A stretch of DNA of 36,690 nt, taken from the IMG/VR virus record IMGVR_UViG_3300045988_098479; one strand, given 5' to 3'. The translations under genes were made by a program, and so were the position numbers. Below, piece after piece: positions 4,488-36,690 of this stretch. Each line of letters opens with the position of its first letter. Position 1 is the stretch's first letter. Below the pieces are notes generated by a model that saw only the letters and a list, made by a program, of their open reading frames with translations, made no database searches and was not told the DNA's origin. This stretch comes from a virus.

Positions 4488-5678
4488 ATGCCCGGGCAAC
4501 CCATAGGAGACATTATGGCACAGTCCGAACGCAAGCGAAGGCGGGCCGGCTCGTACCGCGAGGTCAGGCCGGGCGTCTGGGAGGTGAGGGCGAGCAAGGG
4601 GCGTCGCGCCGACGGCGGGCGCCGCACGGTTTCCCGCACGGTCGAGGGCAGCGAGCTCGACGCCGAGATAGAGGCCGCGCGCCTCGTGGCGGAGCTGGGC
4701 GGCGCGGCGAACCTCGGCGAGTCACTCACGCTCGAGCAGTTCTACTGGGGGATATTCAGGAAGTCGGACAGCAACCGGGGGAAGCCCCGCAGCGCGGCGA
4801 CGCTCAGGCAGTACGACTCCCAGATGGTGCGCAACGTCCTCCCCGCCATCGGGCACATACCGCTGTCCAAGCTCACGCACGGCGACATCAAGGCCGCGGT
4901 GCTGGCGTCGACGGCGCCGGCGCTCACCAAGCGGACGCTGCGCGCAGTGCTGCTGTCGGCATACGACGACGAGCTCATGGACGAGCGGCCGTTCCGGCGG
5001 CGCATAACCACGCCGCAGCGCAGGAAGCCGCAGCGCGCCCCGTGGACGGCGCAGGAGGCGGTAGCGGCGCTCGGGGCCATGAGGGGCCGCCCGCTGGAGG
5101 CGTACCTGATACTCGGCCTGTCGGGACTGCGCATGGAGGAGTCGCTCGGCATCTCCCCCGCCGACATCGTGCCCCAGGCGACCTACGACCTCGTGACCGG
5201 CACGGAGGTCCGCACGCTCACGCTCGTGGTCAGGCGGAAGTACACCGACGCCGACGGCCTGGTGGACGAGGCGAAGAACGAGGCGTCCGTGCGCGAGCGC
5301 CCCGCGATCGTGGCCGGGCGCGACCGGCTGCTCGCCATCGTCGCGGCGACGCGCCCCGACCCGGGCGACCCGACGGCCGTCGACGCCTGGCGCCGCTCGC
5401 GCCTCGTGCCCCTGCGCGGCGACACGCTCTACAAGAGGTGGAAGTCGGAGCTCGCGGCGCTGGGTCTGCGCTTCATCCCGCCGGACATGCTCCGGCACAC
5501 GTCCGAGACGCTGATGCAGGCCGCGGGCCTGCCCGACACGGTCACCTCGCGCTTCCACGGCCACGCGGAGCTCAAGACCGACTACGGCAACTACATGCGC
5601 CCCGGCGCGGCGACCATGGAGGACGCGGCGAGGAAAGTGCATAGACTGCTGTCGGGAGAGGACCCCAGTGGGGCGTAG
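4488..5678 (+). CDS. int: Tyrosine integrase (phage integrase family)
   Basis: Motifs LSGLRMEE (Arg), MLRHTSET (Arg) and FHGHAELKTDYGNY (His, Tyr) are present, together with an N-terminal SAM-like/arm-binding region. The gene is adjacent to attP. ATG 4515 (AGGAGA plus 5 nt) may be the true start. Confidence 0.85.
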   Translation: MPGQPIGDIMAQSERKRRRAGSYREVRPGVWEVRASKGRRADGGRRTVSRTVEGSELDAEIEAARLVAELGGAANLGESLTLEQFYWGIFRKSDSNRGKPRSAATLRQYDSQMVRNVLPAIGHIPLSKLTHGDIKAAVLASTAPALTKRTLRAVLLSAYDDELMDERPFRRRITTPQRRKPQRAPWTAQEAVAALGAMRGRPLEAYLILGLSGLRMEESLGISPADIVPQATYDLVTGTEVRTLTLVVRRKYTDADGLVDEAKNEASVRERPAIVAGRDRLLAIVAATRPDPGDPTAVDAWRRSRLVPLRGDTLYKRWKSELAALGLRFIPPDMLRHTSETLMQAAGLPDTVTSRFHGHAELKTDYGNYMRPGAATMEDAARKVHRLLSGEDPSGA

Positions 5679-6051: not shown

Positions 6052-7236
6052 CTAGCCCCTCTGGGCGTACGCGGCGCCCGATGCGGTGCCGACGGCGATC
6101 CAGCGCGTGTAGCCGGAATAGCTGGTATAGCGTCCCCATACGTAGCCGCCTGATGTCACGAACGTGCCATCGAGGTTGACGGTCTGGCCGCGATGGTAGC
6201 TGGCGACAACGCTGTAGCCGGTGCCCGCGCCGGAGCGAACGTTGAGCGTGTTCACCACGATGCGGTAGCGGCCGGCGGAACGGCCGGTGGATGCGGGGCG
6301 CGCCTGAGACGCGGCGGCGCCAACGCGAACGAGGTAGTCGTTCGGATCGTAGCCGCCGGTGGGCTTGCCGACAGCGACATAGCGGGTATAGCCGGAATAG
6401 CTGGTATATCGTCCCCAAACATAACCGTTCGAGACGCAATACCAATCGTCGAGCGTCACGGTCTGACCGTAGCCGTAGCCAGCCACAACAGCGCCGGACA
6501 TAGACGGCGCGGTACGCACGTTCAGGCGACTTGCGTTGCAGCGGTAGGTGCCGCCGAAGCCGGAGCCGGTCTTTGCAGTGGTGGTGGAAGATGCCACGGT
6601 GCCACCGTTTCCATCAGTCGGCGCGATAGGCGCGACATAGCCGCTGCCGAGGTAAGCTGCCACCGCCTGCTTGAACTCGTACCAAGTCTTGCCATAGGCG
6701 CGGAAATAACCGTTTGGGTCTGTATGGTCGGAACCGCCCCAGCGTTGGGCTGCTTCGTAGTGGCTTAGCAGGCGGGACGTATCCCAGCCATGGGCGCGAA
6801 GCTCATCGCCAGCCCACTTCACAGCTTCATTCCACTGCTTTGCGAAATCGGAAGCATTGGTGGCGTGGGCAAGCTCGATACCGATAGTGGCGTAGTTGCC
6901 ATTGCCAACATGCCAGCACAAGCGATTCTCGGGCACCGTGTTGTACACGGTGGAGCCGTCCAGCTCCATGACGTGATGCACGGCGTAGGTATCGTTGCGC
7001 GACCAAAGCAACGTGTGGTTGTAGGCAGACGCGCCGGGGTTCGCTGTCTCATGGATAACTAGGTAGCTCGCATTGAGATAGCCATGACCGTTGCTCACGT
7101 ACTTGTTCACGCTCTGGTAGGCTTCGGCGCTGAGCGGGGCGGCAAGCGCCGCCACAAGGGCGAGGACAACGGCGAAAACGCTGCGCATCGGCAGCTTGCG
7201 CTTAGCCTCGGCACTAGTCTCCGTCATGGTCGCCAC
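6052..7236 (-). CDS. Endolysin: signal peptide, N-acetylmuramoyl-L-alanine amidase (Amidase_2/PGRP-like), two SH3b-like repeats
   Basis: The N-terminus [23 protein letters not shown] looks like a Sec signal with an AxA site. The amidase block runs [11 protein letters not shown]...[17 protein letters not shown]...HTDP. The C-terminus has two 60-aa repeats. The start could instead be Met4 or Met17. Confidence 0.85.
6088..6546 (-). repeat. Two SH3b-like cell-wall-binding modules (coding tandem repeat)
   Basis: Residues 231-290 and 324-383 of the endolysin share YR...LNVR......G.VVA.Y..GQTV.LD......[15 protein letters not shown](Y/W)(V/I)AVG. Shared DNA stretches lie around 6108-6146 and 6383-6425. 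Confidence 0.85.
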
Positions 7237-7444
7237 CCGCCTTCAGGCGCGCGGAGTCCACTGCCTGCTCGGCCGCGGCGTAGATGGCCGCGCTCGCGAC
7301 CCCGCACACCGTGCCGATAGCGGCGACGGTCTGGTTATCCGTGGCGATGCCGGCCACGCTGGCCGCGACGGAGCCCAAAAAAGCCGCCGCACACAGCCAG
7401 AACTTGCGGCTCGTCAGCTTCTTGACGATCTCGTCTCTGGTCAT
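7214..7444 (-). CDS. Putative holin (76 aa, two hydrophobic segments)
   Basis: LTSRKFWLCAAAFLGSVAASVAGI and AAIGTVCGVASAAIYAAA are followed by a charged C-terminus. The gene is immediately upstream of, and overlaps, the endolysin. Confidence 0.65.
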   Translation of the reverse strand: MTRDEIVKKLTSRKFWLCAAAFLGSVAASVAGIATDNQTVAAIGTVCGVASAAIYAAAEQAVDSARLKAGGDHDGD

Positions 7445-7795: not shown

Positions 7796-7875
7796 GCTCG
7801 GCCCTCCTTTCCTCTCGCTTTCCGCGCCATCCTGCGGGCGGCGTGAGATTGAGCCTCGCCGCCGCTACACGCAAT

Positions 7876-7924
7876 AAATCCCAGACGTAACGCAGCGGGC
7901 TACCATGCGAAGCGTCTGGGATTT
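7876..7924. promoter_or_regulatory. 12-bp perfect inverted repeat AAATCCCAGACG / CGTCTGGGATTT bracketing the first ATG of the recombinase ORF
   Basis: Arms are at 7876-7887 and 7913-7924 with a 25-nt loop that contains ATG 7905. T-runs follow on both strands. Function unknown. Confidence 0.5.
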
Positions 7925-8813
7925 TCGAGAGATTGGACTGTTCAAAATGCTGTTTTCCGATGCCATCACCGAGTACATGGCCGACAAGGGCAAGCGTCTC
8001 CGCGCCACCACGCTGGAGGGCTACCGCAGCGCCATCCGCTGCCACCTGATGCCGCAGTGGGGTAAGCGCGAGATTGAGACGATCAGCTTTGAGGAGGTAC
8101 AAGATTGGGTCGATTCGTTCGCCCTACCAGGTGCCGCCGAGAAGGCGTACAAGACCTTCCGACAGATTTACCGCTGGGTGCTTCGCCGACATCAGCTGCG
8201 AATCTGGGACGTGACGCAAGGTGTGGAGCTGCCCCAAAAGCCGACCGCGCGCCGACCGACGCTCACTGCCGAGCAGGAGCGCGTGACGCTCAAGGCCATC
8301 GTCGGCCAGCCCTTCGAGGCCGCAGTCCTGCTCGGTGCCGCGCTGGGCCTGCGCCGCTGCGAGGCCTGCGCGGTGAGAATCGAGGATGTGGATTGGCGTA
8401 GCGGCTGGGTACATGTGCAGCGCGGCCTGCACGTGGTGGGCGGCGAGGTCATCGAGACCGGATGCAAGACCAAGCTGTCAGACCGCAAGCTGAAACTGCC
8501 GCGATTCGCGCTTGAGCGCTTGCGTGCCATCCGTGGGACGCGCAGGTCTGGTCGTCTGTGCCTGCTTGACCCAAACGCCGTCGCCCGCAAGTTCCGCGCG
8601 TTCTGCAAGCGGCTCGACCTGCCGCATGTGCCGATGACGTGCCTTCGCCACAGCTGGGCGACGATCTCGCTGGAGCACGGTGCAGCTATCGAGGACATAG
8701 CCGTGGCGCTCGGGCATTCGACCGTCAACACGGCGATGGCGCACTACCTGCAATCATTCCGCACGGTCGTGGCCAGGGCGAGCGATTCATACACGGCGGC
8801 GATGGAGATGTAG
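7905..8813 (+). CDS. Tyrosine recombinase (XerC/D- or Rci-like), candidate shufflon invertase
   Basis: An N-terminal SAM-like domain (ITEYMADKGKRLRATTLEGYRSAIRCHL) is present. Catalytic-type motifs are LGLRRCE (Arg), LRHSWAT (Arg), LGHS (His) and AMAHY (Tyr). The TAG stop 8811-8813 is part of repeat site 1. The alternative start ATG 7947 lies downstream of the inverted repeat. Confidence 0.85.
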   Translation: MRSVWDFREIGLFKMLFSDAITEYMADKGKRLRATTLEGYRSAIRCHLMPQWGKREIETISFEEVQDWVDSFALPGAAEKAYKTFRQIYRWVLRRHQLRIWDVTQGVELPQKPTARRPTLTAEQERVTLKAIVGQPFEAAVLLGAALGLRRCEACAVRIEDVDWRSGWVHVQRGLHVVGGEVIETGCKTKLSDRKLKLPRFALERLRAIRGTRRSGRLCLLDPNAVARKFRAFCKRLDLPHVPMTCLRHSWATISLEHGAAIEDIAVALGHSTVNTAMAHYLQSFRTVVARASDSYTAAMEM

Positions 8814-8828
8814 GGCATTCCGTATCAC
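8811..8828 (+). repeat. Shufflon site 1 (variant): TAGGGCATTCCGTATCAC
   Basis: The first 10 bp of the core, ATTCCGTATC, are conserved (8817-8826) and the last 2 bp are AC instead of CC. The TAG is the recombinase stop codon. Confidence 0.8.
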
Positions 8829-9118
8829 ACGCCTCGGGCAAGGTAGGGTCAGTATCCTATTTCAAAACAGCCGGCATTGTTATCGTGAGCTGCCTTTTCG
8901 TAAGGGTTACGATTAGTTCGTCGTGGGGAAGCGCGACAATCGGGAGGCTTCCGGAGGGGTTTCGGCCAGCCATCAGGGTCATAGCGCCAATCGCGAGCGA
9001 CTGGGCGAGCGGAAACATGTCCATCGACGCGAACGGAACGGTCACCATTAACGCCAATAACGACACGATCTCCACCGCCTCGTCCATCTCTTCCATCGCT
9101 GTATTTCCGGCGGCGTAG
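8819..9118 (+). CDS. Silent tail-fibre C-terminal cassette 1 (99 codons, no own start at the site)
   Basis: The frame TCC GTA TCA opens at the core of site 1 and runs to the TAG of site 2. The product begins SVSHASGKVGSVSYFKTAG... and ends ...SSIAVFPAA. Confidence 0.7.
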   Translation, partial: SVSHASGKVGSVSYFKTAGIVIVSCLFVRVTISSSWGSATIGRLPEGFRPAIRVIAPIASDWASGNMSIDANGTVTINANNDTISTASSISSIAVFPAA

Positions 9119-9131
9119 CATTCCGTATCCC
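9116..9131 (+). repeat. Shufflon site 2: TAGCATTCCGTATCCC
   Basis: Exact 16-mer. The TAG is the stop of cassette 1. Confidence 0.9.
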
Positions 9132-9400
9132 GTGCGCCGAGAGTTTTTGTCGGTAACAAGATCGTGAACTTTAACGATGCGAATTACACGATGCTTTGGG
9201 ACAAGGTGGGCTTTGAGCGGGAGTTCGGGCGAGGCTTCGACAATTCCCGCGATTCCGTGTACGCGATGAACGGTGATGCGAGCTACGACTTCATGGTTTC
9301 CGGCGTGAATTTCTACCCACGCGACGGGAACCTCGTCGTCGCAATCAGCGGCGCACACACTGGTCCATTCCGAGTGAATTACATCGTTGTGCTTGGCTAG
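9122..9400 (+). CDS. Silent tail-fibre C-terminal cassette 2 (92 codons)
   Basis: The frame opens at TCC GTA TCC of site 2 and ends at the TAG of site 3. The product begins SVSRAPRVFVGNKIVNFNDANYTMLW... The ORF-track GTG 9164 is internal. Confidence 0.75.
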   Translation, partial: SVSRAPRVFVGNKIVNFNDANYTMLWDKVGFEREFGRGFDNSRDSVYAMNGDASYDFMVSGVNFYPRDGNLVVAISGAHTGPFRVNYIVVLG

Positions 9401-9413
9401 CATTCCGTATCCC
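9398..9413 (+). repeat. Shufflon site 3: TAGCATTCCGTATCCC
   Basis: Exact 16-mer. The TAG is the stop of cassette 2. Confidence 0.9.
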
Positions 9414-9643
9414 ATCTCACCCATATCGAGGTCGTGTCAGGCCAAAGCGACGGCACCGTGACCGCGCCGACGGTCGCGGGCTACCGCTTCTTGTGCTGGG
9501 TGGCATGCGTGTCCGTCGGCTGGGTCGGTATCTGCTACATCGAGCATCCAACGAACACGACATCGAAAATCTGGTACGTCACGCAGCTGCAGAATAGCGG
9601 CGGCGGCAGGGTGGATTGCTTCGCGCTTTACGTGCATCAGTAG
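9404..9643 (+). CDS. Silent tail-fibre C-terminal cassette 3 (79 codons)
   Basis: The frame opens at site 3. The product begins SVSHLTHIEVVSGQSDGTVTAP... and ends ...CFALYVHQ with TAG 9641-9643. It converges on, and overlaps by 7 nt, the end of cassette 4. Confidence 0.75.
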   Translation, partial: SVSHLTHIEVVSGQSDGTVTAPTVAGYRFLCWVACVSVGWVGICYIEHPTNTTSKIWYVTQLQNSGGGRVDCFALYVHQ

Positions 9644-9981
9644 GGGCGCACTTCGAGCAGCCATGAGAATGGCGTGCTCTTGGCCCACCCAGCGTTCGGC
9701 TTGTTTTCCGTCTTGAAGTAGTACGTCTTACCAGCTTCCACGCCCGCGAATACGGCCTTGGCCGTAACCATGCGCTGGACGCCGTCGCTGCCGTTGAGGC
9801 CAGTCGATACCTCCGCCACGCTTTGCAGCCCGCTCGGTGTCACCACATGGAGGCCGATCTCGCCGCCCCATGCGCCGTACGTCTCATACGCCCACACCTG
9901 TGCGACGATTACGCCGCTCACCTTGGGAGTGAATGAGAATTCGGCGCTTGAAGATGCGAAATACTCGGTCTGGGATACGGA
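9637..9981 (-). CDS. Silent tail-fibre C-terminal cassette 4 (114 codons)
   Basis: The frame opens at site 4. The product begins SVSQTEYFASSSAEFSFTPKVSGVIVAQVW... and ends ...SWLLEVRPY with TGA 9637-9639. Confidence 0.75.
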   Translation of the reverse strand, partial: SVSQTEYFASSSAEFSFTPKVSGVIVAQVWAYETYGAWGGEIGLHVVTPSGLQSVAEVSTGLNGSDGVQRMVTAKAVFAGVEAGKTYYFKTENKPNAGWAKSTPFSWLLEVRPY

Positions 9982-9987
9982 ATGCTA
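9972..9987 (-). repeat. Shufflon site 4: TAGCATTCCGTATCCC (minus orientation)
   Basis: The plus strand reads GGGATACGGAATGCTA. The TAG is the stop of cassette 5. Confidence 0.9.
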
Positions 9988-10314
9988 GCCGATAGCCCAC
10001 GAGCAGGCGCCCCTGTTTAAGGCTCCGGGCGTCGCGTTGGCGACCTTGAAGCCGACCGTGCCGTCATTGCCGACAAAGCAATATGCGCAGACATTGAGAA
10101 CGTAGCCGTCGTTGTTCGTCGCGCACCCCGGTGTGTAGATGTTGCCAGCGGGCCGCAGCTCTTCAGGGATGCGTTTGTCCACCTGCCAATATTCAGCAGT
10201 CGGCTGGATGACGCTCCAACTGAGCATACAGATGCGCCCGATGCGCCGCACGTAGATGTAAGACGGCTTGTCCGGTCCTCCGTATAGCACAATCGGGTCG
10301 CCGTGGGATACGGA
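9985..10314 (-). CDS. Silent tail-fibre C-terminal cassette 5 (109 codons)
   Basis: The frame opens at site 5. The product begins SVSHGDPIVLYGGPDKPSYIYVRR, contains KRIPEELRPAGNIY and ends CSWAIG. The stop is the TAG of site 4. Confidence 0.75.
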   Translation of the reverse strand, partial: SVSHGDPIVLYGGPDKPSYIYVRRIGRICMLSWSVIQPTAEYWQVDKRIPEELRPAGNIYTPGCATNNDGYVLNVCAYCFVGNDGTVGFKVANATPGALNRGACSWAIG

Positions 10315-10318
10315 ATCA
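10305..10318 (-). repeat. Shufflon site 5 (variant): TGATTCCGTATCCC (minus orientation)
   Basis: The 12-bp core is exact. The 5-prime flank is TGA (stop of cassette 6) instead of TAGC. Confidence 0.85.
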
Positions 10319-10615
10319 CATGCCGATGGGGTAGCTCAGCGAGGCGAAGTGGTTCCGATGGTCCGTCTTGCCGCCCATGCTATGCACTATGATGGTGCCG
10401 TCTGACATGACGAGCAGGCGGTACGAGTTGTCCACGCCTCCGTACTCGGTGACCATCGCCGCAGACCAGGCATGGGAGGGCCGCAGCTCCTCGGGAATGA
10501 CGTACGGACACTTGATGCCCTCAGCAGGATCAGCGATGATCTGCGTGGCGCGGACGTAGACCGTCATGCCCACGCGCACGACGCTCCAGTTTTTCGCCTC
10601 GTACAGGGATACGGA
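10316..10615 (-). CDS. Silent tail-fibre C-terminal cassette 6 (99 codons)
   Basis: The frame opens at site 6. The product begins SVSLYEAKNWSVVRVGMTVYV, contains YVIPEELRPSHAW and ends LSYPIGM. The stop is the TGA in site 5. It shares the IPEELRP motif with cassette 5. Confidence 0.75.
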   Translation of the reverse strand, partial: SVSLYEAKNWSVVRVGMTVYVRATQIIADPAEGIKCPYVIPEELRPSHAWSAAMVTEYGGVDNSYRLLVMSDGTIIVHSMGGKTDHRNHFASLSYPIGM

Positions 10616-10621
10616 ATGCTA
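10606..10621 (-). repeat. Shufflon site 6: TAGCATTCCGTATCCC (minus orientation)
   Basis: Exact 16-mer. The TAG is the stop of cassette 7. Confidence 0.9.
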
Positions 10622-10921
10622 CTCGAAATCGATAGCGACGATTTGAATGTTGACTCGTGCATAAATTCCCCTCGTGCCGCCCTCGATGTCCACCCAGAAG
10701 TTCCCTGAACTCCAATAAGCAAGATTGATTACATCGAACGCATTAGCAGTAATATCACCGTTAAACACTTGGACGATGTCGAAGCCGTTGAAGTCGCGGC
10801 CCACCAGATTCTTGTACTCGTCTTTGGTGATCGCGAGAAGCCTTCCGGAGGCATCCCATTGTGTGCCGGGGCGGACGATGGACGTGAAGAACTGACGTAT
10901 GCGCGGCGCCCGGGATACGGA
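10619..10921 (-). CDS. Silent tail-fibre C-terminal cassette 7 (100 codons)
   Basis: The frame opens at site 7. The product begins SVSRAPRIRQFFTSIVRPGTQWD... and ends ...NIQIVAIDFE. The stop is the TAG of site 6. It shares the SVSRAPR start with cassette 2 and is visibly AT-richer. Confidence 0.75.
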   Translation of the reverse strand, partial: SVSRAPRIRQFFTSIVRPGTQWDASGRLLAITKDEYKNLVGRDFNGFDIVQVFNGDITANAFDVINLAYWSSGNFWVDIEGGTRGIYARVNIQIVAIDFE

Positions 10922-10927
10922 ATGCTA
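10912..10927 (-). repeat. Shufflon site 7: TAGCATTCCGTATCCC (minus orientation)
   Basis: Exact 16-mer. The TAG is the stop of cassette 8. Confidence 0.9.
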
Positions 10928-11179
10928 GAGCTGGAAGGCAAACCAGACAATGTCAGTCGTTACCGCCTTCTTTGGTTCAGTCTCGTTGTAAACCCGAATC
11001 TTAAAGCCTGTCGGCGTGAGGCTGTGCGAGCTTAGCGACACTTGCGTCCAATACATCGGGATTCCGCCTCTTGACAGCATAACGGCGTAGTCGCCAGCAT
11101 ACGGCTTGTCGAAAGTGACATCTTTATCGATGTATTCGGTGGCGATCGTCGCGGTCAGCTTGCCCCGTCGGGATACGGA
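10925..11179 (-). CDS. Silent tail-fibre C-terminal cassette 8 (84 codons)
   Basis: Translated codon by codon: it begins SVSRRGKLTATIATEYIDKDVTFDKPYAGDYAVML... and ends ...TTDIVWFAFQL. The stop is the TAG of site 7. It is absent from the ORF track because it has no start codon. Confidence 0.75.
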   Translation of the reverse strand, partial: SVSRRGKLTATIATEYIDKDVTFDKPYAGDYAVMLSRGGIPMYWTQVSLSSHSLTPTGFKIRVYNETEPKKAVTTDIVWFAFQL

Positions 11180-11185
11180 ATGCTA
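11170..11185 (-). repeat. Shufflon site 8: TAGCATTCCGTATCCC (minus orientation)
   Basis: Exact 16-mer. The TAG is the stop of the currently expressed tail-fibre gene. Confidence 0.9.
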
Positions 11186-11998
11186 CAGGGGAATAAAGCC
11201 CATGGCCGAGGGCCATCCGAAACCGCGCATCGGCTCTGAAGAGGACACATCGAACATCGCGTCACCGTTGGTCTGAACCCTTAGCGCCACCCCAAATTTG
11301 AGCTGCATGTTTGCGCAGATGCACACGATCCGCTCATTGGTAGGCAGATAATTTGAAGGCAGCGTGAGCACCTTGGCCGAATAGCCGGTCTGAGTCCCGG
11401 TGGTCATGTAGCCGCTGCCTTTCGTCTCAAAAACAAGTGAGTGTATGGCGGGAATGTAGGAGACATCCAGAGTTGCGTCGCAGCCGTAGATATTCGCTCT
11501 GCCGCTGGCGATCTTCATTCGGGATACGGAATCCCCGAGGGTCGCGAGCGAGGCCACGGGGTCGAAGAGCCTCACGGGCGTGCCGGCGTTGATTCCATTC
11601 AGCGGCACGCGCCACAGCTTCAAGTCGTTCGCCGTCACCTTTGGGTCTGCGGCGGTACCCGTTGTGGGCGTGCCTTTGATTACGACGGGCGTGATGGATT
11701 CGATGCCCGCACTCGTCTTTGCGTAGCGCGCGACCACCAGGTCGTTGCGCTTCTGGCCTTGCGTACCAGATTGGATGGTCAAGCCAGTAGCCGCCTGGTT
11801 CCAGAAGCGCTTGCCGCCGACCATGCCCACGCCGGTGCCGAGCGTCGCTGAGTTCGCGCTCTGCATCGTCAGCTCGAAGTCGTCGCCGTACTCCAGCACG
11901 CAGTCGGCCCTGCCGACCGTCGCGGTGTTGAGCGCGGCCAGGTCGTCCGAGCTGATGTGCTTCGTGCCGGTCATTCCGTCCACTATCTCGAATGCCAT
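11183..11998 (-). CDS. Tail fibre / receptor-binding protein (constant N-terminal 156 aa plus currently expressed cassette 9)
   Basis: ATG 11998 has AAGGAG upstream. It is the last structural gene after the Dit/Tal/Zn-ribbon genes. The shufflon core lies at codons 157-160 and the stop is the TAG of site 8. Confidence 0.8.
   Translation of the reverse strand: MAFEIVDGMTGTKHISSDDLAALNTATVGRADCVLEYGDDFELTMQSANSATLGTGVGMVGGKRFWNQAATGLTIQSGTQGQKRNDLVVARYAKTSAGIESITPVVIKGTPTTGTAADPKVTANDLKLWRVPLNGINAGTPVRLFDPVASLATLGDSVSRMKIASGRANIYGCDATLDVSYIPAIHSLVFETKGSGYMTTGTQTGYSAKVLTLPSNYLPTNERIVCICANMQLKFGVALRVQTNGDAMFDVSSSEPMRGFGWPSAMGFIPL
11521..11532 (-). repeat. Shufflon site 9 (expression site) inside the tail-fibre gene: ATTCCGTATCCC
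   Basis: Exact 12-bp core, encoding (D)SVS(R) at codons 156-160 of the fibre. Its 5-prime flank is the constant region rather than TAGC. Confidence 0.9.
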
Positions 11999-11999
11999 G

Positions 12000-12233
12000 C
12001 TACTGCTCCTTCGCGTTGCTCATGAACTGTTGGAACTCGCCGTCGTGCTTGGCGGCGAGCTTCTTGTACTCGTCCGTGCACCCCTTGCACAGCAGGCGGG
12101 TCGCCCTGCTGCCGTACTGATCGAAGCGCTCGACCTCGCGCCAGTCCCCCGCCGCCGCAGCGCCTTGCTGCAGGTACGCGCTCTCGCCGCAGCGGTCGCA
12201 TGTGTACTTCGTGATGTTGTCTGTCTTGGACAT
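12000..12233 (-). CDS. Small CxxC...CxxC zinc-ribbon-like protein (77 aa)
   Basis: ATG 12233 has GAGGAGA upstream. The product contains YTCDRCGESAY...LLCKGCTDEY. It lies between Tal and the fibre. The remainder of ORF 12000..12572 is overprinted on Tal and is rejected. Confidence 0.6.
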   Translation of the reverse strand: MSKTDNITKYTCDRCGESAYLQQGAAAAGDWREVERFDQYGSRATRLLCKGCTDEYKKLAAKHDGEFQQFMSNAKEQ

Positions 12234-12244
12234 GCCTGTCTCCT

Positions 12245-13723
12245 CTACTTCGTCCTGAGCCACGTGTACGGGCCGATGCTCGGCACCATCCGCCATTCGC
12301 CGCCGTAGTCGGACGGGTCGTAGCCCTTCGTCTCGATGTAGGTGCCGACCGGGTGAGACGCCTCGAACATCTCCCTGACGGTCACCGCCGACGCGGTGCC
12401 GGGCGGCCCTTGCTCGCCGCGCTCGCCCTTCTCGCCGCGCTCGCCCTTCTCGCCGCGCGGGATGCCGAGCGAGAGCGTCTTGATCAGGCTCTCGCCCGCG
12501 AGAGCCGCCGTGGCGTTCGCGCCCGGCGGCAGCGTCTGGACCGCGCCGATCTCCAACGAGGCGCCTGCCCACGTCTGCACGGCTTTGGTCGCGTCCCTGC
12601 GGGCGGCCTCGGCGGTGCCGCGCACCTCAGTGAGCGCATCTGCGTCAACCTCCGCGCTGAATGTGTAGTTGCTCAGCGTCAGGCCTTTGCCGGCCAGGTA
12701 CGCGTGCCCGCCGCCTCCGCTGCCGCTGCCGCTGCTCTCGGCGACTCCGCTGCTGCTCATCTTGGTCGTGGTCTCGCCGCCGACCTCGTATGAGTACACG
12801 GCAACGCCGCGCGAGACCTTCACGATCTTCTTCGCTACCGTCGCGTTCACGGTGCGCCCGTGCGCGTTGTCGCGCGCCGAGATCATGTCTCCCACGTCCA
12901 CGTCGATATCGTCGTGGGTCGCAACCTCGACGCTGCCTTGGGTCTGATACTCTTGCAGCTTCTTGCGGCCCTCCTCCTCCAGCTTCGCCTCATCGGCGTT
13001 GCTGTAGTCGTAGAGCGCGCATATCTCGTCGACGCCGAAGAGGCTCTGGACGTGGCTGACGTTGCCCGCCGCGTCGGCGTAGAAGTGGACTACCGCGCGG
13101 TTCTCCAATTCGCCAGTTCCCGCGCAAACCAAATGGTTCACGCAGCGGTAGACAGACGTGAGCGTGAAATCCATAAGGTCGGAATCGACCTTATTCGCGT
13201 AGTCCACTATCGGCGGCAGCGACAGCTCGACCTTGCCGCCGAGGCGGCGCATCGAGACCTTTCGCCCGTTCGCCTTCGCCAGGGCCTTCAGGCCGCCGTA
13301 CCCGTCCGCGAAGCGGTCGATGGTGTAGCTGACCGCCGTATCGTCTACGGCGGCTGAAAACAGCCCGGACAGCCCCATGCGGGATATGAGGGACGCGACC
13401 ACCTCGCCCGCCTTGCCGCTCACTGCGAGGTAGCCGCTGCCCGAATCGGGCAGGAGGCGCTTGCCGGCCAGGATGCCGTGCCACGTGCGGCCCTTGCACA
13501 GGACGGTGCCGGAGGCGTCCCTGCCCGTATCGTAGGTGACCTCGTCGACGACGCCGCCGTACTCGGTCCCGTCGATGAATACGAATTGCCCCTCGGCGGG
13601 GGCCTCGCCGGCGCGCGCCTCGAGCTTCAGGGCGTTCTCGTCGCTGCCGAACGCGAGGTCGAGCTCGAATTCCTCGATCTCGCGGACGTCCCCGGCCGCC
13701 GGGTCGCTCACCACTAGGACCAT
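12245..13723 (-). CDS. Tail-associated (Tal / siphovirus Gp37-like) baseplate protein with a collagen-like Gly-X-Y stretch
   Basis: ATG 13723 overlaps the Dit stop. The gene is immediately after Dit. The product is 492 aa, with RGEKGERGEKGERGEQGPPG near the C-terminus. Confidence 0.7.
   Translation of the reverse strand: MVLVVSDPAAGDVREIEEFELDLAFGSDENALKLEARAGEAPAEGQFVFIDGTEYGGVVDEVTYDTGRDASGTVLCKGRTWHGILAGKRLLPDSGSGYLAVSGKAGEVVASLISRMGLSGLFSAAVDDTAVSYTIDRFADGYGGLKALAKANGRKVSMRRLGGKVELSLPPIVDYANKVDSDLMDFTLTSVYRCVNHLVCAGTGELENRAVVHFYADAAGNVSHVQSLFGVDEICALYDYSNADEAKLEEEGRKKLQEYQTQGSVEVATHDDIDVDVGDMISARDNAHGRTVNATVAKKIVKVSRGVAVYSYEVGGETTTKMSSSGVAESSGSGSGGGGHAYLAGKGLTLSNYTFSAEVDADALTEVRGTAEAARRDATKAVQTWAGASLEIGAVQTLPPGANATAALAGESLIKTLSLGIPRGEKGERGEKGERGEQGPPGTASAVTVREMFEASHPVGTYIETKGYDPSDYGGEWRMVPSIGPYTWLRTK
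12398..12463 (-). repeat. Collagen-like Gly-X-Y coding repeat (tandem 18-bp units)
   Basis: GEKGER is duplicated at the DNA level (cgccgcgctcgcccttct occurs twice on the plus strand). Confidence 0.8.
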
Positions 13724-14529
13724 GCCGGCTCCCCCTCCTCCTCGTAGAGCGTCAGGTCGAACCCGAAGCTGTTGTCCCACGAGACCTCGCAGGTGCCGGC
13801 CGGCACGCGCTCGAAGATGTACTCGCCCGAGCCGGCGCCGCTGCCTCGGTGCGCCTTGCCGAAGGCGTCGCGGACGTCGCCGTCTGCGGAGACCACGGAG
13901 ACGGTGCGCCGCAGCGGGTCGACCTCCATGTAGCCGCCGTCCGGCACCGATACGTCGACCTGGTACAGGTTCTCGCCGAGCCGGACCGCGGGATTGACCG
14001 CCGGCCCGTAGACGATGAACCGGGCGGGGCTGCCGGAATGCCCCGGGTTGCGCGCGTACCGCTTCGGCGGGGTCGCCCCGAGGTCATACGGGAGGTCATG
14101 CGGTAGGTCGAGGAACTCGTACCCGGACGAGCCCATGACGGGCGTGAACTCCGTCGTGACGCCCCTGCGCCACAGGCCGTCGAGCAGCACGACGGTGATC
14201 TTCGCGGTGAAGAGCCCGTCCCGCACCCCGTCGACCTTCGACGCGAGGACGAAGCAGCGCTGGAACCACAACCCGACCCTCAGCGTCCCGGGCGTGTTGC
14301 CCGAGACGTCGAGGTCCGCGCAGCGGCGGAACTCGTCGGCCAGCGCCATGTCGGCGAAGACCGCCCTGAACGAGGCCTTGCGGGCGCCGCGCGAGACGGT
14401 CGACAGCGCACGGTACCCGATCTTGTAGTCCCATTCGCGGCTGAAGAGGTCGTTCGGCGTGCCGACGTAGATGCCGGAATTGAGCGGGATGACCGCCCCC
14501 GCGCCCGATTCATATTCGATATCAGGCAT
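13714..14529 (-). CDS. Distal tail protein (Dit)
   Basis: ATG 14529 overlaps the TMP stop by 8 nt. The product is 271 aa and the gene sits in the canonical position directly after the tape measure gene. Confidence 0.7.
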   Translation of the reverse strand: MPDIEYESGAGAVIPLNSGIYVGTPNDLFSREWDYKIGYRALSTVSRGARKASFRAVFADMALADEFRRCADLDVSGNTPGTLRVGLWFQRCFVLASKVDGVRDGLFTAKITVVLLDGLWRRGVTTEFTPVMGSSGYEFLDLPHDLPYDLGATPPKRYARNPGHSGSPARFIVYGPAVNPAVRLGENLYQVDVSVPDGGYMEVDPLRRTVSVVSADGDVRDAFGKAHRGSGAGSGEYIFERVPAGTCEVSWDNSFGFDLTLYEEEGEPAWS

Positions 14530-16753
14530 ACGCGACCGCCTTCCTCGCCCTGCGCCCGAACTCCGACTCGCCCATGACGGGCGTGAACTCCGCGATGATG
14601 GAGGGCAGGTTCTCGGCCAGCCAGCCGATAACGGCCGACGCGCCGCCGTCCGCGACAACGCCCTCCCCGGTGCCGGAAATGGTCCGGTCGCCGTAACGCG
14701 GGCCGTCGGCCCTGACCGTCGCATCGAACGCCGCGGCGCGCTCGACCTTCCCGACGGCGGACTCCATTGACTTCACGGGCTCGTCCGCCGTGTCGTCGAT
14801 GCCGAGGGCCGCGCCCTGCATCACGTAGCCGAATATCTTGCGGAACACGCGCGAGGGCGAGTGGATGCCGAGCAGGTTCTTGGCTGCGTCGATGGCGCCG
14901 CCGACCACGCCGGTTATCTTGTTGACGACCACGCCGGCCGCGCCGCTGATTCCGTTTGCGATGCCCTGCACGATATTGCGGCCGATCGACACCACGCGGC
15001 CCGGCAAGCTAAGGAAGGCGGACTCGATGTTCGACGCGATGCGTAGCGCCGCGCCCTTCACTGCACCGACTGCGCCCGAGATGGCGCCCTGCAGGTTGTA
15101 CATGGCAACCTTGCCGAGGTTCGACAGCGTCGACGGCAGGTTCTGGATGGCGTCGCGGATGGCGGACACGATGTTGGTGCCGCACGTGCTGACGAAGCCG
15201 GCCATGCCGGCGATGCCGTTGCCCAGGAGCGTGATGGCGTTGCGGCCGAGGCTTATCCAGTCGAGAGCTGACCATGCCGCGAGTATTGCCGAGAAGATGG
15301 CCGGGATGTTCGCGATGAGCGTCGGTATCGCCTGCACGATGCCGAGCGCCAGCGTCACGATTGCCTGGATGCCGGCGCCCAGCAGCGTCGGCGCGTTGTC
15401 GTTGATCGCGTCGGCGAGGTTCTGCACGATGACCGGGGCCTGCTCGATGATGGTCGGCAGGCTGTCGGCGATACCCTGCGCCAGGCCGACTATGAGGTTC
15501 GCCGCGCCCTCGGCAAGAACGCCCGCGTTCTCGGCTATGGACTCTGAGAGGCCGGTGAGAATCTGCAGGCCGCTCTCCATGATGGAGGGAAGGTTCTCGG
15601 ACAGGTAGCCGCCGAGTTGGCTCATGATGTCGGCCGCCGCGCCGGAGAGGAACGACAGGCCGTTCACGATACCGTCGTAGAGCACCGGTCCGACCTGCGC
15701 GCCTATCTCGTCCAACCCGCCGAAGGCGCCCGAGAGCGCCGACATGGCGCTGTCGGCGATGGACATGAAGGCCTCGCCGGCGACCGGCGCCAGCGTCGCT
15801 ATGACCCCGGGGAGCTGCTCGACGGCCGTGGACACGATGGTCGCCACGCGCGGCACGATGTTGGAGGCCGCCGTCTCGACCGACTCGACCAGCTCGGTCG
15901 TGAGCTTGCCCATGTCGGCGTCGTCCTTGCCGAGCTCCGTCACCCAGTTCTCCCACGCGGCCTTGGCCATGTTGCAGGAGCCCTCGATGGTCGTCGCGGC
16001 CTCACGCGAGGTCGTGCCGGCGATCTGCATCTGCTCCTGCATCGTATGGATGGCGAGCACGATGTTGTCGAAGGACAGGCTCGACTCGTCCACGGCGGAG
16101 TTGACCGCGTGCGCGTCCGAGATGAGGCGCTGCATCTCCTCCTTGGTGCCGCCGTATCCCAGCTTCAAGTTGTCGAGCATGGTGTAGTTCTGTTTCGCAA
16201 ATCCCTGGTACGCGTTCTGGAGGTCCTCCATCGCCGTGCCGAAGGTGTTCGCGTTGTCGCTCATGTCGACCATTGCCGTGTCGGCGTACTCGGCGGCCTT
16301 GACCGTGTCGCCGCCGAGCGATTTGACGAGCGAGGCGGAGAAGCCCGTCACCTGCTCCATGTACCGGTTGGCGCTCAGGCCGGCCGTTATGTAGGCGCGG
16401 TCGGCATTTGCCAGCACCGTCGTCTGTGCCTGCTCGAGCTGCTGCCACTTGCCGGAGCACTGCTCGACGGTCTGGCCGGTCATGGCGGCGTAGTCCTCTA
16501 GGGACTTGCCCATGTTGCCGAAAATCTTCTGGATGCCGCCGACGTTCTGCTCGTACGCGGCGTAGGCGTTCATGCTCATGCCGGTCACCGCCGCGACGCC
16601 GGCAGCCACCGCCGTTACTCCGGCCGCGACAAGCGATGCGGCCGCGGCCGCCGCCTTGCCGAGCTTTCCCTCGATGCCGCCGGCGATGCCGTCGACCTTG
16701 CCGGATGCCTGGTCGTCGACGCCGATCTTGACCAAGAGATCGAGAAGGTCCAT
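14522..16753 (-). CDS. Tape measure protein
   Basis: The product is 743 aa, Ala/Gly/Ile-rich with repetitive helical and hydrophobic segments. Its ATG lies directly after the stop of the GT chaperone extension. Confidence 0.9.
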   Translation of the reverse strand: MDLLDLLVKIGVDDQASGKVDGIAGGIEGKLGKAAAAAASLVAAGVTAVAAGVAAVTGMSMNAYAAYEQNVGGIQKIFGNMGKSLEDYAAMTGQTVEQCSGKWQQLEQAQTTVLANADRAYITAGLSANRYMEQVTGFSASLVKSLGGDTVKAAEYADTAMVDMSDNANTFGTAMEDLQNAYQGFAKQNYTMLDNLKLGYGGTKEEMQRLISDAHAVNSAVDESSLSFDNIVLAIHTMQEQMQIAGTTSREAATTIEGSCNMAKAAWENWVTELGKDDADMGKLTTELVESVETAASNIVPRVATIVSTAVEQLPGVIATLAPVAGEAFMSIADSAMSALSGAFGGLDEIGAQVGPVLYDGIVNGLSFLSGAAADIMSQLGGYLSENLPSIMESGLQILTGLSESIAENAGVLAEGAANLIVGLAQGIADSLPTIIEQAPVIVQNLADAINDNAPTLLGAGIQAIVTLALGIVQAIPTLIANIPAIFSAILAAWSALDWISLGRNAITLLGNGIAGMAGFVSTCGTNIVSAIRDAIQNLPSTLSNLGKVAMYNLQGAISGAVGAVKGAALRIASNIESAFLSLPGRVVSIGRNIVQGIANGISGAAGVVVNKITGVVGGAIDAAKNLLGIHSPSRVFRKIFGYVMQGAALGIDDTADEPVKSMESAVGKVERAAAFDATVRADGPRYGDRTISGTGEGVVADGGASAVIGWLAENLPSIIAEFTPVMGESEFGRRARKAVAYA

Positions 16754-36498: not shown

Positions 36499-36690
36499 TG
36501 ATGGTCACCTCTCCGTCCTTGATCTCGACCTTCTCGATGTTCACGCCTGCCAGCTCGGCGAACACGCCACGCGGCCCGTCCAGCTTGTAGATGCGCTCCA
36601 TGCGGCCAGCGCTGCCGACAATGCAGTCGTAGATTTCGAGGTCCTGCGCATCGGCTCCCAATAGCTTCAGACTGAACAGAAGCCCGTAGG
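36491..36690 (-). CDS. Hypothetical protein, 3-prime part (the same gene as 1..289 across the circular junction)
   Basis: The frame is open from the window end to TAA 36491-36493. Bases 36550-36690 duplicate 1-141. Confidence 0.7.
   Translation of the reverse strand, partial: YGLLFSLKLLGADAQDLEIYDCIVGSAGRMERIYKLDGPRGVFAELAGVNIEKVEIKDGEVTINE
36550..36690. repeat. Terminal redundancy: identical to 1..141
   Basis: 141/141 identity to the start of the window. Confidence 0.95.

Follow-up and report, generated by a model that had tools for sequence, protein, structure and literature searches.

The Rin shufflon was described in 2018 in prophages of Bifidobacterium breve and Bifidobacterium longum (Bb423phi1, Bl157phi1, and Bl30698phi1; Sci Rep 2018, PMC6109161). 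Its components are the constant part of a gene (Rc), variable cassettes (Rv), crossover sites (rix), and a recombinase gene (rin). In those prophages, Rc has 168 residues and the five Rv cassettes are 6-30% identical to each other; rix is an asymmetric 11-bp sequence (TTCCCTAACCC) that lies inside the gene, directly after its stop, and before each Rv; and rin encodes an armless, XerD-like tyrosine recombinase that is separate from the integrase (PMC6109161). Sequencing reads showed inversions at rix, one of the rin genes has a stop codon, and the authors raised the avoidance of deletion at directly oriented sites as a problem (PMC6109161). The same system was found in 2022 in the clade 1 prophages of Eggerthella lenta, where an 8-bp repeat (ttccgtat) lies inside Rc and past its stop, the tyrosine recombinase gene is beside small tandem Rv genes, and H-type lectin-like cassettes were reported (Microorganisms 2022, PMC8778435). 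Here we analyze positions 7,905-11,998 of a viral genome, IMG/VR record IMGVR_UViG_3300045988_098479, in which nine short repeats separate nine open frames between a tail gene and a tyrosine recombinase gene. By the window, we mean the whole stretch of DNA that was analyzed, which is 36,690 nucleotides long.

The window is a complete temperate siphophage genome of Collinsella, and the locus is very probably a Rin-type multiple-inversion system (a shufflon). A first-pass annotation, made from the letters alone, had left open whether such a phage system had already been described; it has, as the Rin shufflon has been known since 2018 and was seen again in 2022. So the system is not new. A literature search for Collinsella together with shufflon returned no paper.

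Results

Nine crossover sites and nine open frames

The crossover site of this locus, which we also call rix, contains the 12-mer ATTCCGTATCCC. Across the window there are eight exact copies and one copy with a single mismatch (ATTCCGTATCAC, at 8817), of which three are on the + strand and six are on the - strand (Table 1). All nine are confined to 8817-11532, and there are no further copies in the 36.7-kb window, even if two mismatches are tolerated. None of 100 shuffled sequences reached nine copies, and the 9-mer core TTCCGTATC has nine exact copies where 0.12 would be expected, so we reject chance repeats as the origin of the sites. Among the nine sites, 11 of the 12 positions are invariant. 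The site is asymmetric: its right part is kept while its left flank varies. If the repeat is extended to the left by TAGC, it becomes the 16-mer TAGCATTCCGTATCCC (TAGC-ATTCCGTATCCC), which is found in six of the nine copies, and whose TAG is the stop codon of the cassette before the site.

The first-pass annotation had reported this nine-site array and its absence from the rest of the genome, and the mismatch-tolerant search confirms both. Some of its details need correction. The positions that it gave for two of the 12-mers (9116 and 9398) are where the 16-mer begins, and the 12-mers themselves start at 9120 and 9402. Also, the copy at 8817 differs from the others by one base rather than by two.

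On the - strand, C1 (the silent cassette next to the expressed gene) is in frame with that gene, with one TAG between them (TAG-CAT-TCC-GTA-TCC, within 10925-11998). A stop joined to the site in this way also precedes four more of the sites. Only the cassette junction at rix5 departs from this pattern, as the stop of C3 there (TGA) overlaps the site in a different frame.

Every site is followed, in the same phase (TCC-GTA-TCn), by an open frame of 79-115 codons (Table 1). This had been claimed before, and we found all nine frames to be open when translated. The cassettes do not have a start codon of their own at the site. Their pairwise identity is only 11-28%, and given that the sites between them are conserved, they are unlike decaying duplicates. 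C5 and C6, which converge, occupy one common invertible segment. When the cassettes were searched singly against Pfam, the one match above the curated cut-off was C5, to the jelly-roll family MSP1_barrel (7e-7). C1 has a weak match to H-type lectins (H_lectin, 0.004) that is under the curated cut-off.

Table 1. Features of the locus and its surroundings, and homologs of the silent cassettes that are fused to a constant part elsewhere. Positions are in the window; for fused homologs, the protein or locus is given instead.
Feature	Position or locus	Strand	Basis
Rc, constant part of the putative receptor-binding protein (first 156 codons)	11531..11998	-	homolog alignment
C0, variable C-terminus now expressed, residues 157-271 (115 codons)	11183..11530	-	open in phase
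Silent cassette C1, 84 codons	10925..11179	-	open in phase
Silent cassette C2, 100 codons	10619..10921	-	open in phase
Silent cassette C3, 99 codons	10316..10615	-	open in phase
Silent cassette C4, 109 codons	9985..10314	-	open in phase
Silent cassette C5, 114 codons	9637..9981	-	open in phase
Silent cassette C6, 79 codons, converges on C5	9404..9643	+	open in phase
Silent cassette C7, 92 codons	9122..9400	+	open in phase
Silent cassette C8, 99 codons from S-V-S, stop within the range	8819..9118	+	open in phase
rix1, expression-site crossover within the putative receptor-binding gene, encodes D-S-V-S	11521..11532	-	
rix2, immediately past the stop of the expressed gene	11170..11181	-	
rix3	10912..10923	-	
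rix4	10606..10617	-	
rix5, left flank TGTG in place of TAGC	10305..10316	-	
rix6	9972..9983	-	
rix7	9402..9413	+	
rix8	9120..9131	+	
rix9, recombinase-proximal crossover site, ATTCCGTATCAC (1 mismatch)	8817..8828	+	
rin, shufflon tyrosine recombinase, 302 amino acids (possible start M15 at 7947, giving 288 amino acids)	7905..8813	+	Pfam, PHROG
C1 homologs, 77% identical, fused after DSVS	P0137, P0138		
C2 homolog, 93% identical, fused after GDSVS	P0121		
C3 homolog, 97% identical, fused to Rc at residue 157	P0017/L063		
C4 homolog, 81% identical, fused to Rc at residue 157	P0109		
C5 homolog, 97% identical, fused to Rc at residue 157	P0097/L064		
C6 homolog, 82% identical, fused to Rc at residue 157	P0037		
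C7 homolog, 91% identical, fused to Rc at residue 157	P0003		
C8 homologs, 98% identical, fused to Rc at residue 157	P0004, P0092		
Tape-measure protein	14522..16753	-	PHROG
Minor tail protein	12245..13780	-	PHROG
Holin	7214..7444	-	PHROG
Endolysin	6052..7236	-	PHROG
Second tyrosine recombinase, the integrase	4488..5678	+	PHROG

A constant part joined to a variable tip

In the protein of 271 amino acids (gene at 11183..11998, - strand), the site corresponds to S157-V158-S159, which leaves residues 1-156 as the constant part. The first-pass annotation had drawn the boundary at the same place, and the homologs agree with it: when 32 of them are aligned, nearly all columns are invariant as far as S157-S159, and beyond this there is no consensus. 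Overall, we found 1829 homologs of the constant part. The 120 that we listed are 212-279 residues long, except for one of 160 residues.

An AlphaFold2 model, built from the 32-sequence alignment, gives the head formed by C0 as a confident beta-sandwich, with a predicted local distance difference test score (pLDDT) of about 80-95. When this model was compared to known structures with Foldseek, it had weak matches to the fiber heads of adenovirus and reovirus (E about 0.01, none at or below 0.001), with template modeling scores, normalized to the target, of about 0.5. By sequence, the protein has no significant match in PDB to solved phage receptor-binding proteins, and it has no match in NCBIfam.

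The recombinase

Rin matches the Pfam families PF00589 (5.5e-11) and PF14659 (a SAM-like N-terminal domain) and does not have an arm-binding domain. In PHROG it matches the integrases (5e-44). The residues R150, K188, R248, H271, and Y281 are all present. Rin is just 22% identical to the phage's own integrase (396 amino acids), so the earlier claim of a dedicated tyrosine recombinase beside the array holds up. In NCBIfam, Rin has only sub-threshold matches, to Xer (XerA) and integron-integrase models, that score far under the curated cut-offs. Rin is presumably the enzyme that acts on the rix sites.

Two details of the gene as first annotated should be revised, even though it does abut the array. 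First, the true start may be at M15 (7947) instead of at 7905: this start is used in the gene call for another contig with the same protein (L061, 288 amino acids), and many of the homolog alignments begin there. Second, the stop codon (TAG, 8811-8813) was said to lie inside the outermost repeat, whereas it ends 3 nucleotides upstream of the 12-mer of rix9 and touches only the register of the extended repeat.

We rejected a serine-invertase switch, as the recombinase adjacent to the array belongs to PF00589; resolvase domains were not looked for systematically elsewhere in the window.

There is also a strong hairpin at 7876-7924, with a 13-bp stem followed by a run of U; it overlaps the annotated ATG of rin (7905), where rin and the lysis genes diverge. 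The predicted RNA fold of 7860-7960 has an energy of -34.6 kcal/mol (z = -2.5). The hairpin is possibly a control element in the 5' leader or a terminator.

Membership in the Rin family

The genome of Bifidobacterium phage PMBT6 has the same layout as our locus. Its recombinase, which is encoded in the same position, is 39% identical to Rin (E = 1e-56). The two Rc sequences align with 36% identity over residues 1-159, as far as DSVS/DSVT. Its site, TAGC[AT]TTCCGTAACCC, has one different base in the core. From these matches in layout, Rin, Rc, and site, we conclude that the locus is a member of the Rin family. This direct sequence comparison to Bifidobacterium was made with PMBT6, which is a different phage from the prophages published in 2018.

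The shufflon of PMBT6 itself (L065, MH444512, 5380-6904) is not annotated as such; it has four copies of TAGC[AT]TTCCGTAACCC. Another unannotated Rin-type shufflon, with seven copies, is in Siphoviridae sp. ctl617 (L066, OY725605, 2960-5300). In both of these GenBank records, the recombinase is labeled as "integrase" and the cassettes are labeled as "hypothetical protein."

Rearrangements in related phages

Several closely related genomes differ by blocks that are bounded by rix sites. One case is a pair of viral contigs from different metagenomes (L044 and L045) that are 100% identical in sequence, with a block of 1277 bp inverted and a block of 975 bp relocated. All of the breakpoints are at rix sites, and the difference is explained by two inversions between inverted sites. 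In another relative (L001), C5 adjoins rin, which is one inversion away from the arrangement in the window. In three more relatives, Rc leads into a cassette that is silent in the window (C8 in L062, C3 in L063, and C5 in L064), and the sequence switches exactly at the site.

Homologs of the other silent cassettes are also found as expressed fusions (Table 1). Those of C3-C8 are among the 120 listed homologs of Rc, and those of C1 and C2 came from a further search, so all eight silent cassettes have expressed counterparts somewhere. The first-pass annotation had read the array as an inverting shufflon and had proposed to compare cassette orders in related prophages; the orders are indeed permuted at the sites (L044/L045, L001, and L062-L064), and cassettes that are silent here are fused elsewhere, both of which support the inversion reading.

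The frames stay open across the family as well. The median length of the in-phase frame is 83 codons over 207 non-redundant related sites, and 84% of these frames reach 60 codons, as compared to only 12-17% for the other two frames. Decay of the cassettes in related genomes, which had been suggested as a sign against the shufflon, is not what we see.

These results bear on whether the array could be a fossil, that is, the remnant of old recombination or duplication, with a fixed arrangement and a recombinase that is inactive or employed otherwise. We consider this quite improbable. It is true that a single arrangement was recovered for this exact genome, that some relatives look static (for example L067, which has two direct sites and no adjacent rin), and that one published Bifidobacterium rin has a stop codon (PMC6109161). 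Yet the full-length Rin retains its catalytic motifs, all nine frames remain open, the sites agree at 11 of 12 core positions despite the low identity of the cassettes, the frames are open family-wide, and otherwise identical genomes differ through site-bounded inversions.

The related contigs also tend to end at the array. Among loci L001-L059, 14 of 51 related contigs stop within 150 nucleotides past a rix site, and some of them (for example L003, L010, L014, and L022) stop just 10-11 nucleotides past it. As a repeat this short (12-16 nucleotides) would not be expected to interrupt a k-mer assembly, the contigs probably end there because the reads contain mixed junctions. One might turn this around and suspect that the window, which is a metagenome-style circular assembly with a 141-nucleotide terminal repeat, is a chimera of phage variants that were collapsed or concatenated at the short repeat, as metagenome contigs of this family so often break there. 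We find this very hard to believe: the same arrangement is present in two separate assemblies (ENA and Logan), comparable arrays of 5-13 sites are present in genomes of Collinsella isolates, including a complete chromosome (L004), and repeats of 12-16 nucleotides are too short for concatenation.

One site and junction peptide, several constant parts

Some close relatives of Rin are associated with other constant parts. For example, on a contig from a Collinsella aerofaciens isolate (L006, 7900-11900), 13 sites with the same core lie beside a Rin that is 95% identical, and the expressed gene encodes just 139 amino acids, of which an unrelated constant part, ending in the same GDSVS junction, takes up about 45. 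Five more loci (L004, L007, L025, L032, and L040) likewise lack the type of Rc that is in the window. The constant part is 51 residues in P0122, which lies beside a Rin of just 38% identity that nevertheless uses the identical 12-mer; it is 98 residues in P0137 and 118 residues in P0132 and P0138. In these four proteins, DSVS links cassettes homologous to C1 and C2 to another three or more unrelated N-terminal regions, 51, 98, and 118 residues long. Altogether there are at least five different constant regions, of about 45, 51, 98, 118, and 156-167 residues, and homologous cassettes pass between them.

The number and the combination of sites vary as well. Relatives with 10-13 sites (L006, L025, and L032) imply that nine is not a record. 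A four-site array (L068) combines the identical 12-mer with a Rin that shares only 38% identity with the window's. Another locus (L067), with only two sites in direct orientation and none inverted, lacks a neighboring rin but has a large serine recombinase close by, and it may be a fixed derivative.

The pool of cassettes appears to be large. The fetched loci contain 431 cassette frames, which represent 314 different sequences and, at 30% identity, at least 92 families. Of 56 complete expression-site fusions that share the window's 17-nucleotide junction sequence, 52 have tips that are unlike any in the window. Also, in L062-L064, C3, C5/C6, and C8 are 96-99% identical to the window at the nucleotide level, as compared to only 87-89% for the constant region (these loci were compared over 8813-10617 and 11521-12355 of the window). 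This hints at the exchange of cassettes between phages.

How far should these observations be taken? A tentative idea, which we consider possible but would not bet on, is that rix and D-S-V-S together act as a universal joint: a pool of tips might be shared horizontally among phages of Coriobacteriia and joined to unrelated scaffolds, and Rin might invert, lose, and capture cassettes much as an integron does. If this were true, then the locus would be a phage host-range integron and not a closed switch.

A related and somewhat more doubtful view is that the locus is a platform for cassette exchange instead of, or besides, a switch, with Rin excising cassettes at direct rix sites and, like an integron, capturing them between molecules from co-resident phages, so that the array would mainly be a store reshuffled by horizontal transfer. 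Five of the silent cassettes do lie between direct repeats, and one relative (L031, see Discussion) lacks C8 precisely between rix sites. The identity of C3, C5, and C8 between phages with more divergent Rc, the presence of homologous cassettes behind at least five unrelated constant regions and always after DSVS, the use of an identical 12-mer by a Rin that is only 38% identical, and the weak matches to XerA and integron-integrase models would all fit. But the well-resolved differences between near-identical genomes all fit inversions between inverted sites (L044 versus L045), ordinary homologous recombination in the flanking DNA of related prophages could equally share cassettes, neither a circular cassette nor an insertion event has been seen, and the NCBIfam scores are far under the curated cut-offs.

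Genome context and host

The window begins and ends with an exact direct repeat of 141 nucleotides (1-141 and 36550-36690), so the phage genome is complete, was assembled as a circle, and has a length of about 36.55 kb. Its G+C content is 64.5%. The genes are in the order tape measure, minor tail protein, Rc, cassette array, rin (on the opposite strand), holin, and endolysin. Close relatives of Rin, 92-98% identical, come from Collinsella genomes, among which are isolates and the complete chromosome mentioned above, so the host is Collinsella (Coriobacteriaceae) or a close relative. An Eggerthella genome (L024) has a Rin that is 80% identical and an Rc that is 90% identical. We found no match to 7800-12100 when using megablast against 50,697 phage records, and scanning the window with Rfam and for tRNAs gave no hits.

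Discussion

We propose that the locus works as follows. Rc (residues 1-156) would be joined at D-S-V-S, which is encoded by rix, to one of nine tips. Rin would recombine pairs of inverted rix sites and flip the DNA between them, and each inversion would put another cassette, which has neither promoter nor start codon of its own, in frame behind Rc. In a simulation that allowed inversion between any inverted pair, 80,640 arrangements are reachable, and each of them has an in-frame cassette behind Rc; a single inversion suffices to express C6, C7, or C8, and C1-C5 each need two. As every reachable arrangement has an in-frame tip at the expression site, the tail tips in a phage population would be mixed, and presumably its host or receptor specificities as well.

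Some of our results weigh against this proposal. First, six of the nine sites are directly oriented, and an unbiased recombinase would delete cassettes. A relative whose Rin is 99% identical (L031) is without C8, and the gap lies exactly between two direct sites: its recombinase-proximal site runs directly into C7 (L031 5493-5789 versus 8826-9118 in the window). This gap may be the deletion or the insertion of one cassette, and such events may occur occasionally. Presumably, Rin favors inversion over deletion. Second, an identical-protein look-up did not find any other arrangement of this exact phage. Two other contigs with the identical protein (L060, from ENA ERZ28596233 / SAMN05414903, and L061, from SRR3992986) are 100% identical to the window and have the same order, and these two may share one sample. 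Because they keep the order of the window, we infer rather than observe that this exact phage switches. Third, AlphaFold2 did not give a usable model of the constant part (pLDDT below 50), probably because its homologs are about 90% identical there. Finally, what suggests that the variable protein is the receptor-binding protein of the tail is the position of its gene, the weak fold matches of C0, the jelly-roll match of C5, and the analogy to the published systems. The tips would presumably change the host range.

The new points are modest: the Collinsella host, the nine cassettes, and one site and junction peptide that serve several unrelated constant regions. Nevertheless, the Rin shufflon has been published but little studied, with the term "Rin shufflon" used in only three papers of the literature that was searched, and Collinsella, which is new as a host, is an abundant genus of the human gut. 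The arrays can far exceed the first report, with nine sites here and up to 13 in relatives. Because the core of rix is almost the same in phages of Eggerthella, Collinsella, and Bifidobacterium, it can be used as a search key for these loci, which GenBank records label merely as "integrase" and hypothetical proteins. Assemblies are prone to break at rix sites, and a single phage genome may represent many receptor specificities.

How does the locus compare to better-known switches? It resembles the shufflon of the plasmid R64 (Rci, sfx, and pilV) in that a tyrosine recombinase makes multiple inversions at short asymmetric sites and swaps the C-termini that follow a constant N-terminus in an adhesin or receptor-recognition protein. 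A difference is the target, which in R64 is the pilus adhesin of a plasmid and here is a tail gene in a phage genome. Also, most segments in R64 hold two opposed cassettes, whereas here only the C5/C6 segment does, and the others are single and in tandem. The asymmetry of sfx is reported to block recombination between direct sites. The first-pass annotation had matched the locus to the architecture of R64. This holds for the way of working and fails for homology to Rci: a tblastn search with Rin against 72,556 plasmids found 45 records with E at or below 1e-5, of which none is an IncI or other Enterobacteriaceae plasmid, so we rejected membership in the R64/Rci family. As judged from these comparisons, the resemblance is functional and mechanistic only.

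The switches of phages Mu (Gin), P1 (Cin), and p15B (Min) share with our locus that they are phage encoded and invert the C-terminus of a tail fiber, and Min is likewise a multi-segment shufflon. These are serine invertases, which work with an enhancer and Fis.

The prophages of Eggerthella lenta are much closer. Their repeat, ttccgtat, is contained in the window's ATTCCGTATCCC, the layout is the same, and C1 has its weak match to H_lectin. The differences are that the host here is Collinsella, that the Eggerthella locus that we compared has three sites rather than nine, and that the repeat is 8 bp there, while the conserved core here is 12 nucleotides, or 16 if TAGC is included.

The likeness to the Bifidobacterium prophages extends to the components (Rc, Rv, rix, and rin), to the armless recombinase, to the location after the tape-measure and tail genes, and to the divergence of the cassettes (6-30% identity there and 11-28% here). 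Their site, TTCCCTAACCC, is two positions away from the window's TTCCGTATCCC, and they have five cassettes and an Rc of 168 residues, as compared to nine cassettes and 156 residues here. The concept of 2018 is unchanged by the Collinsella locus.

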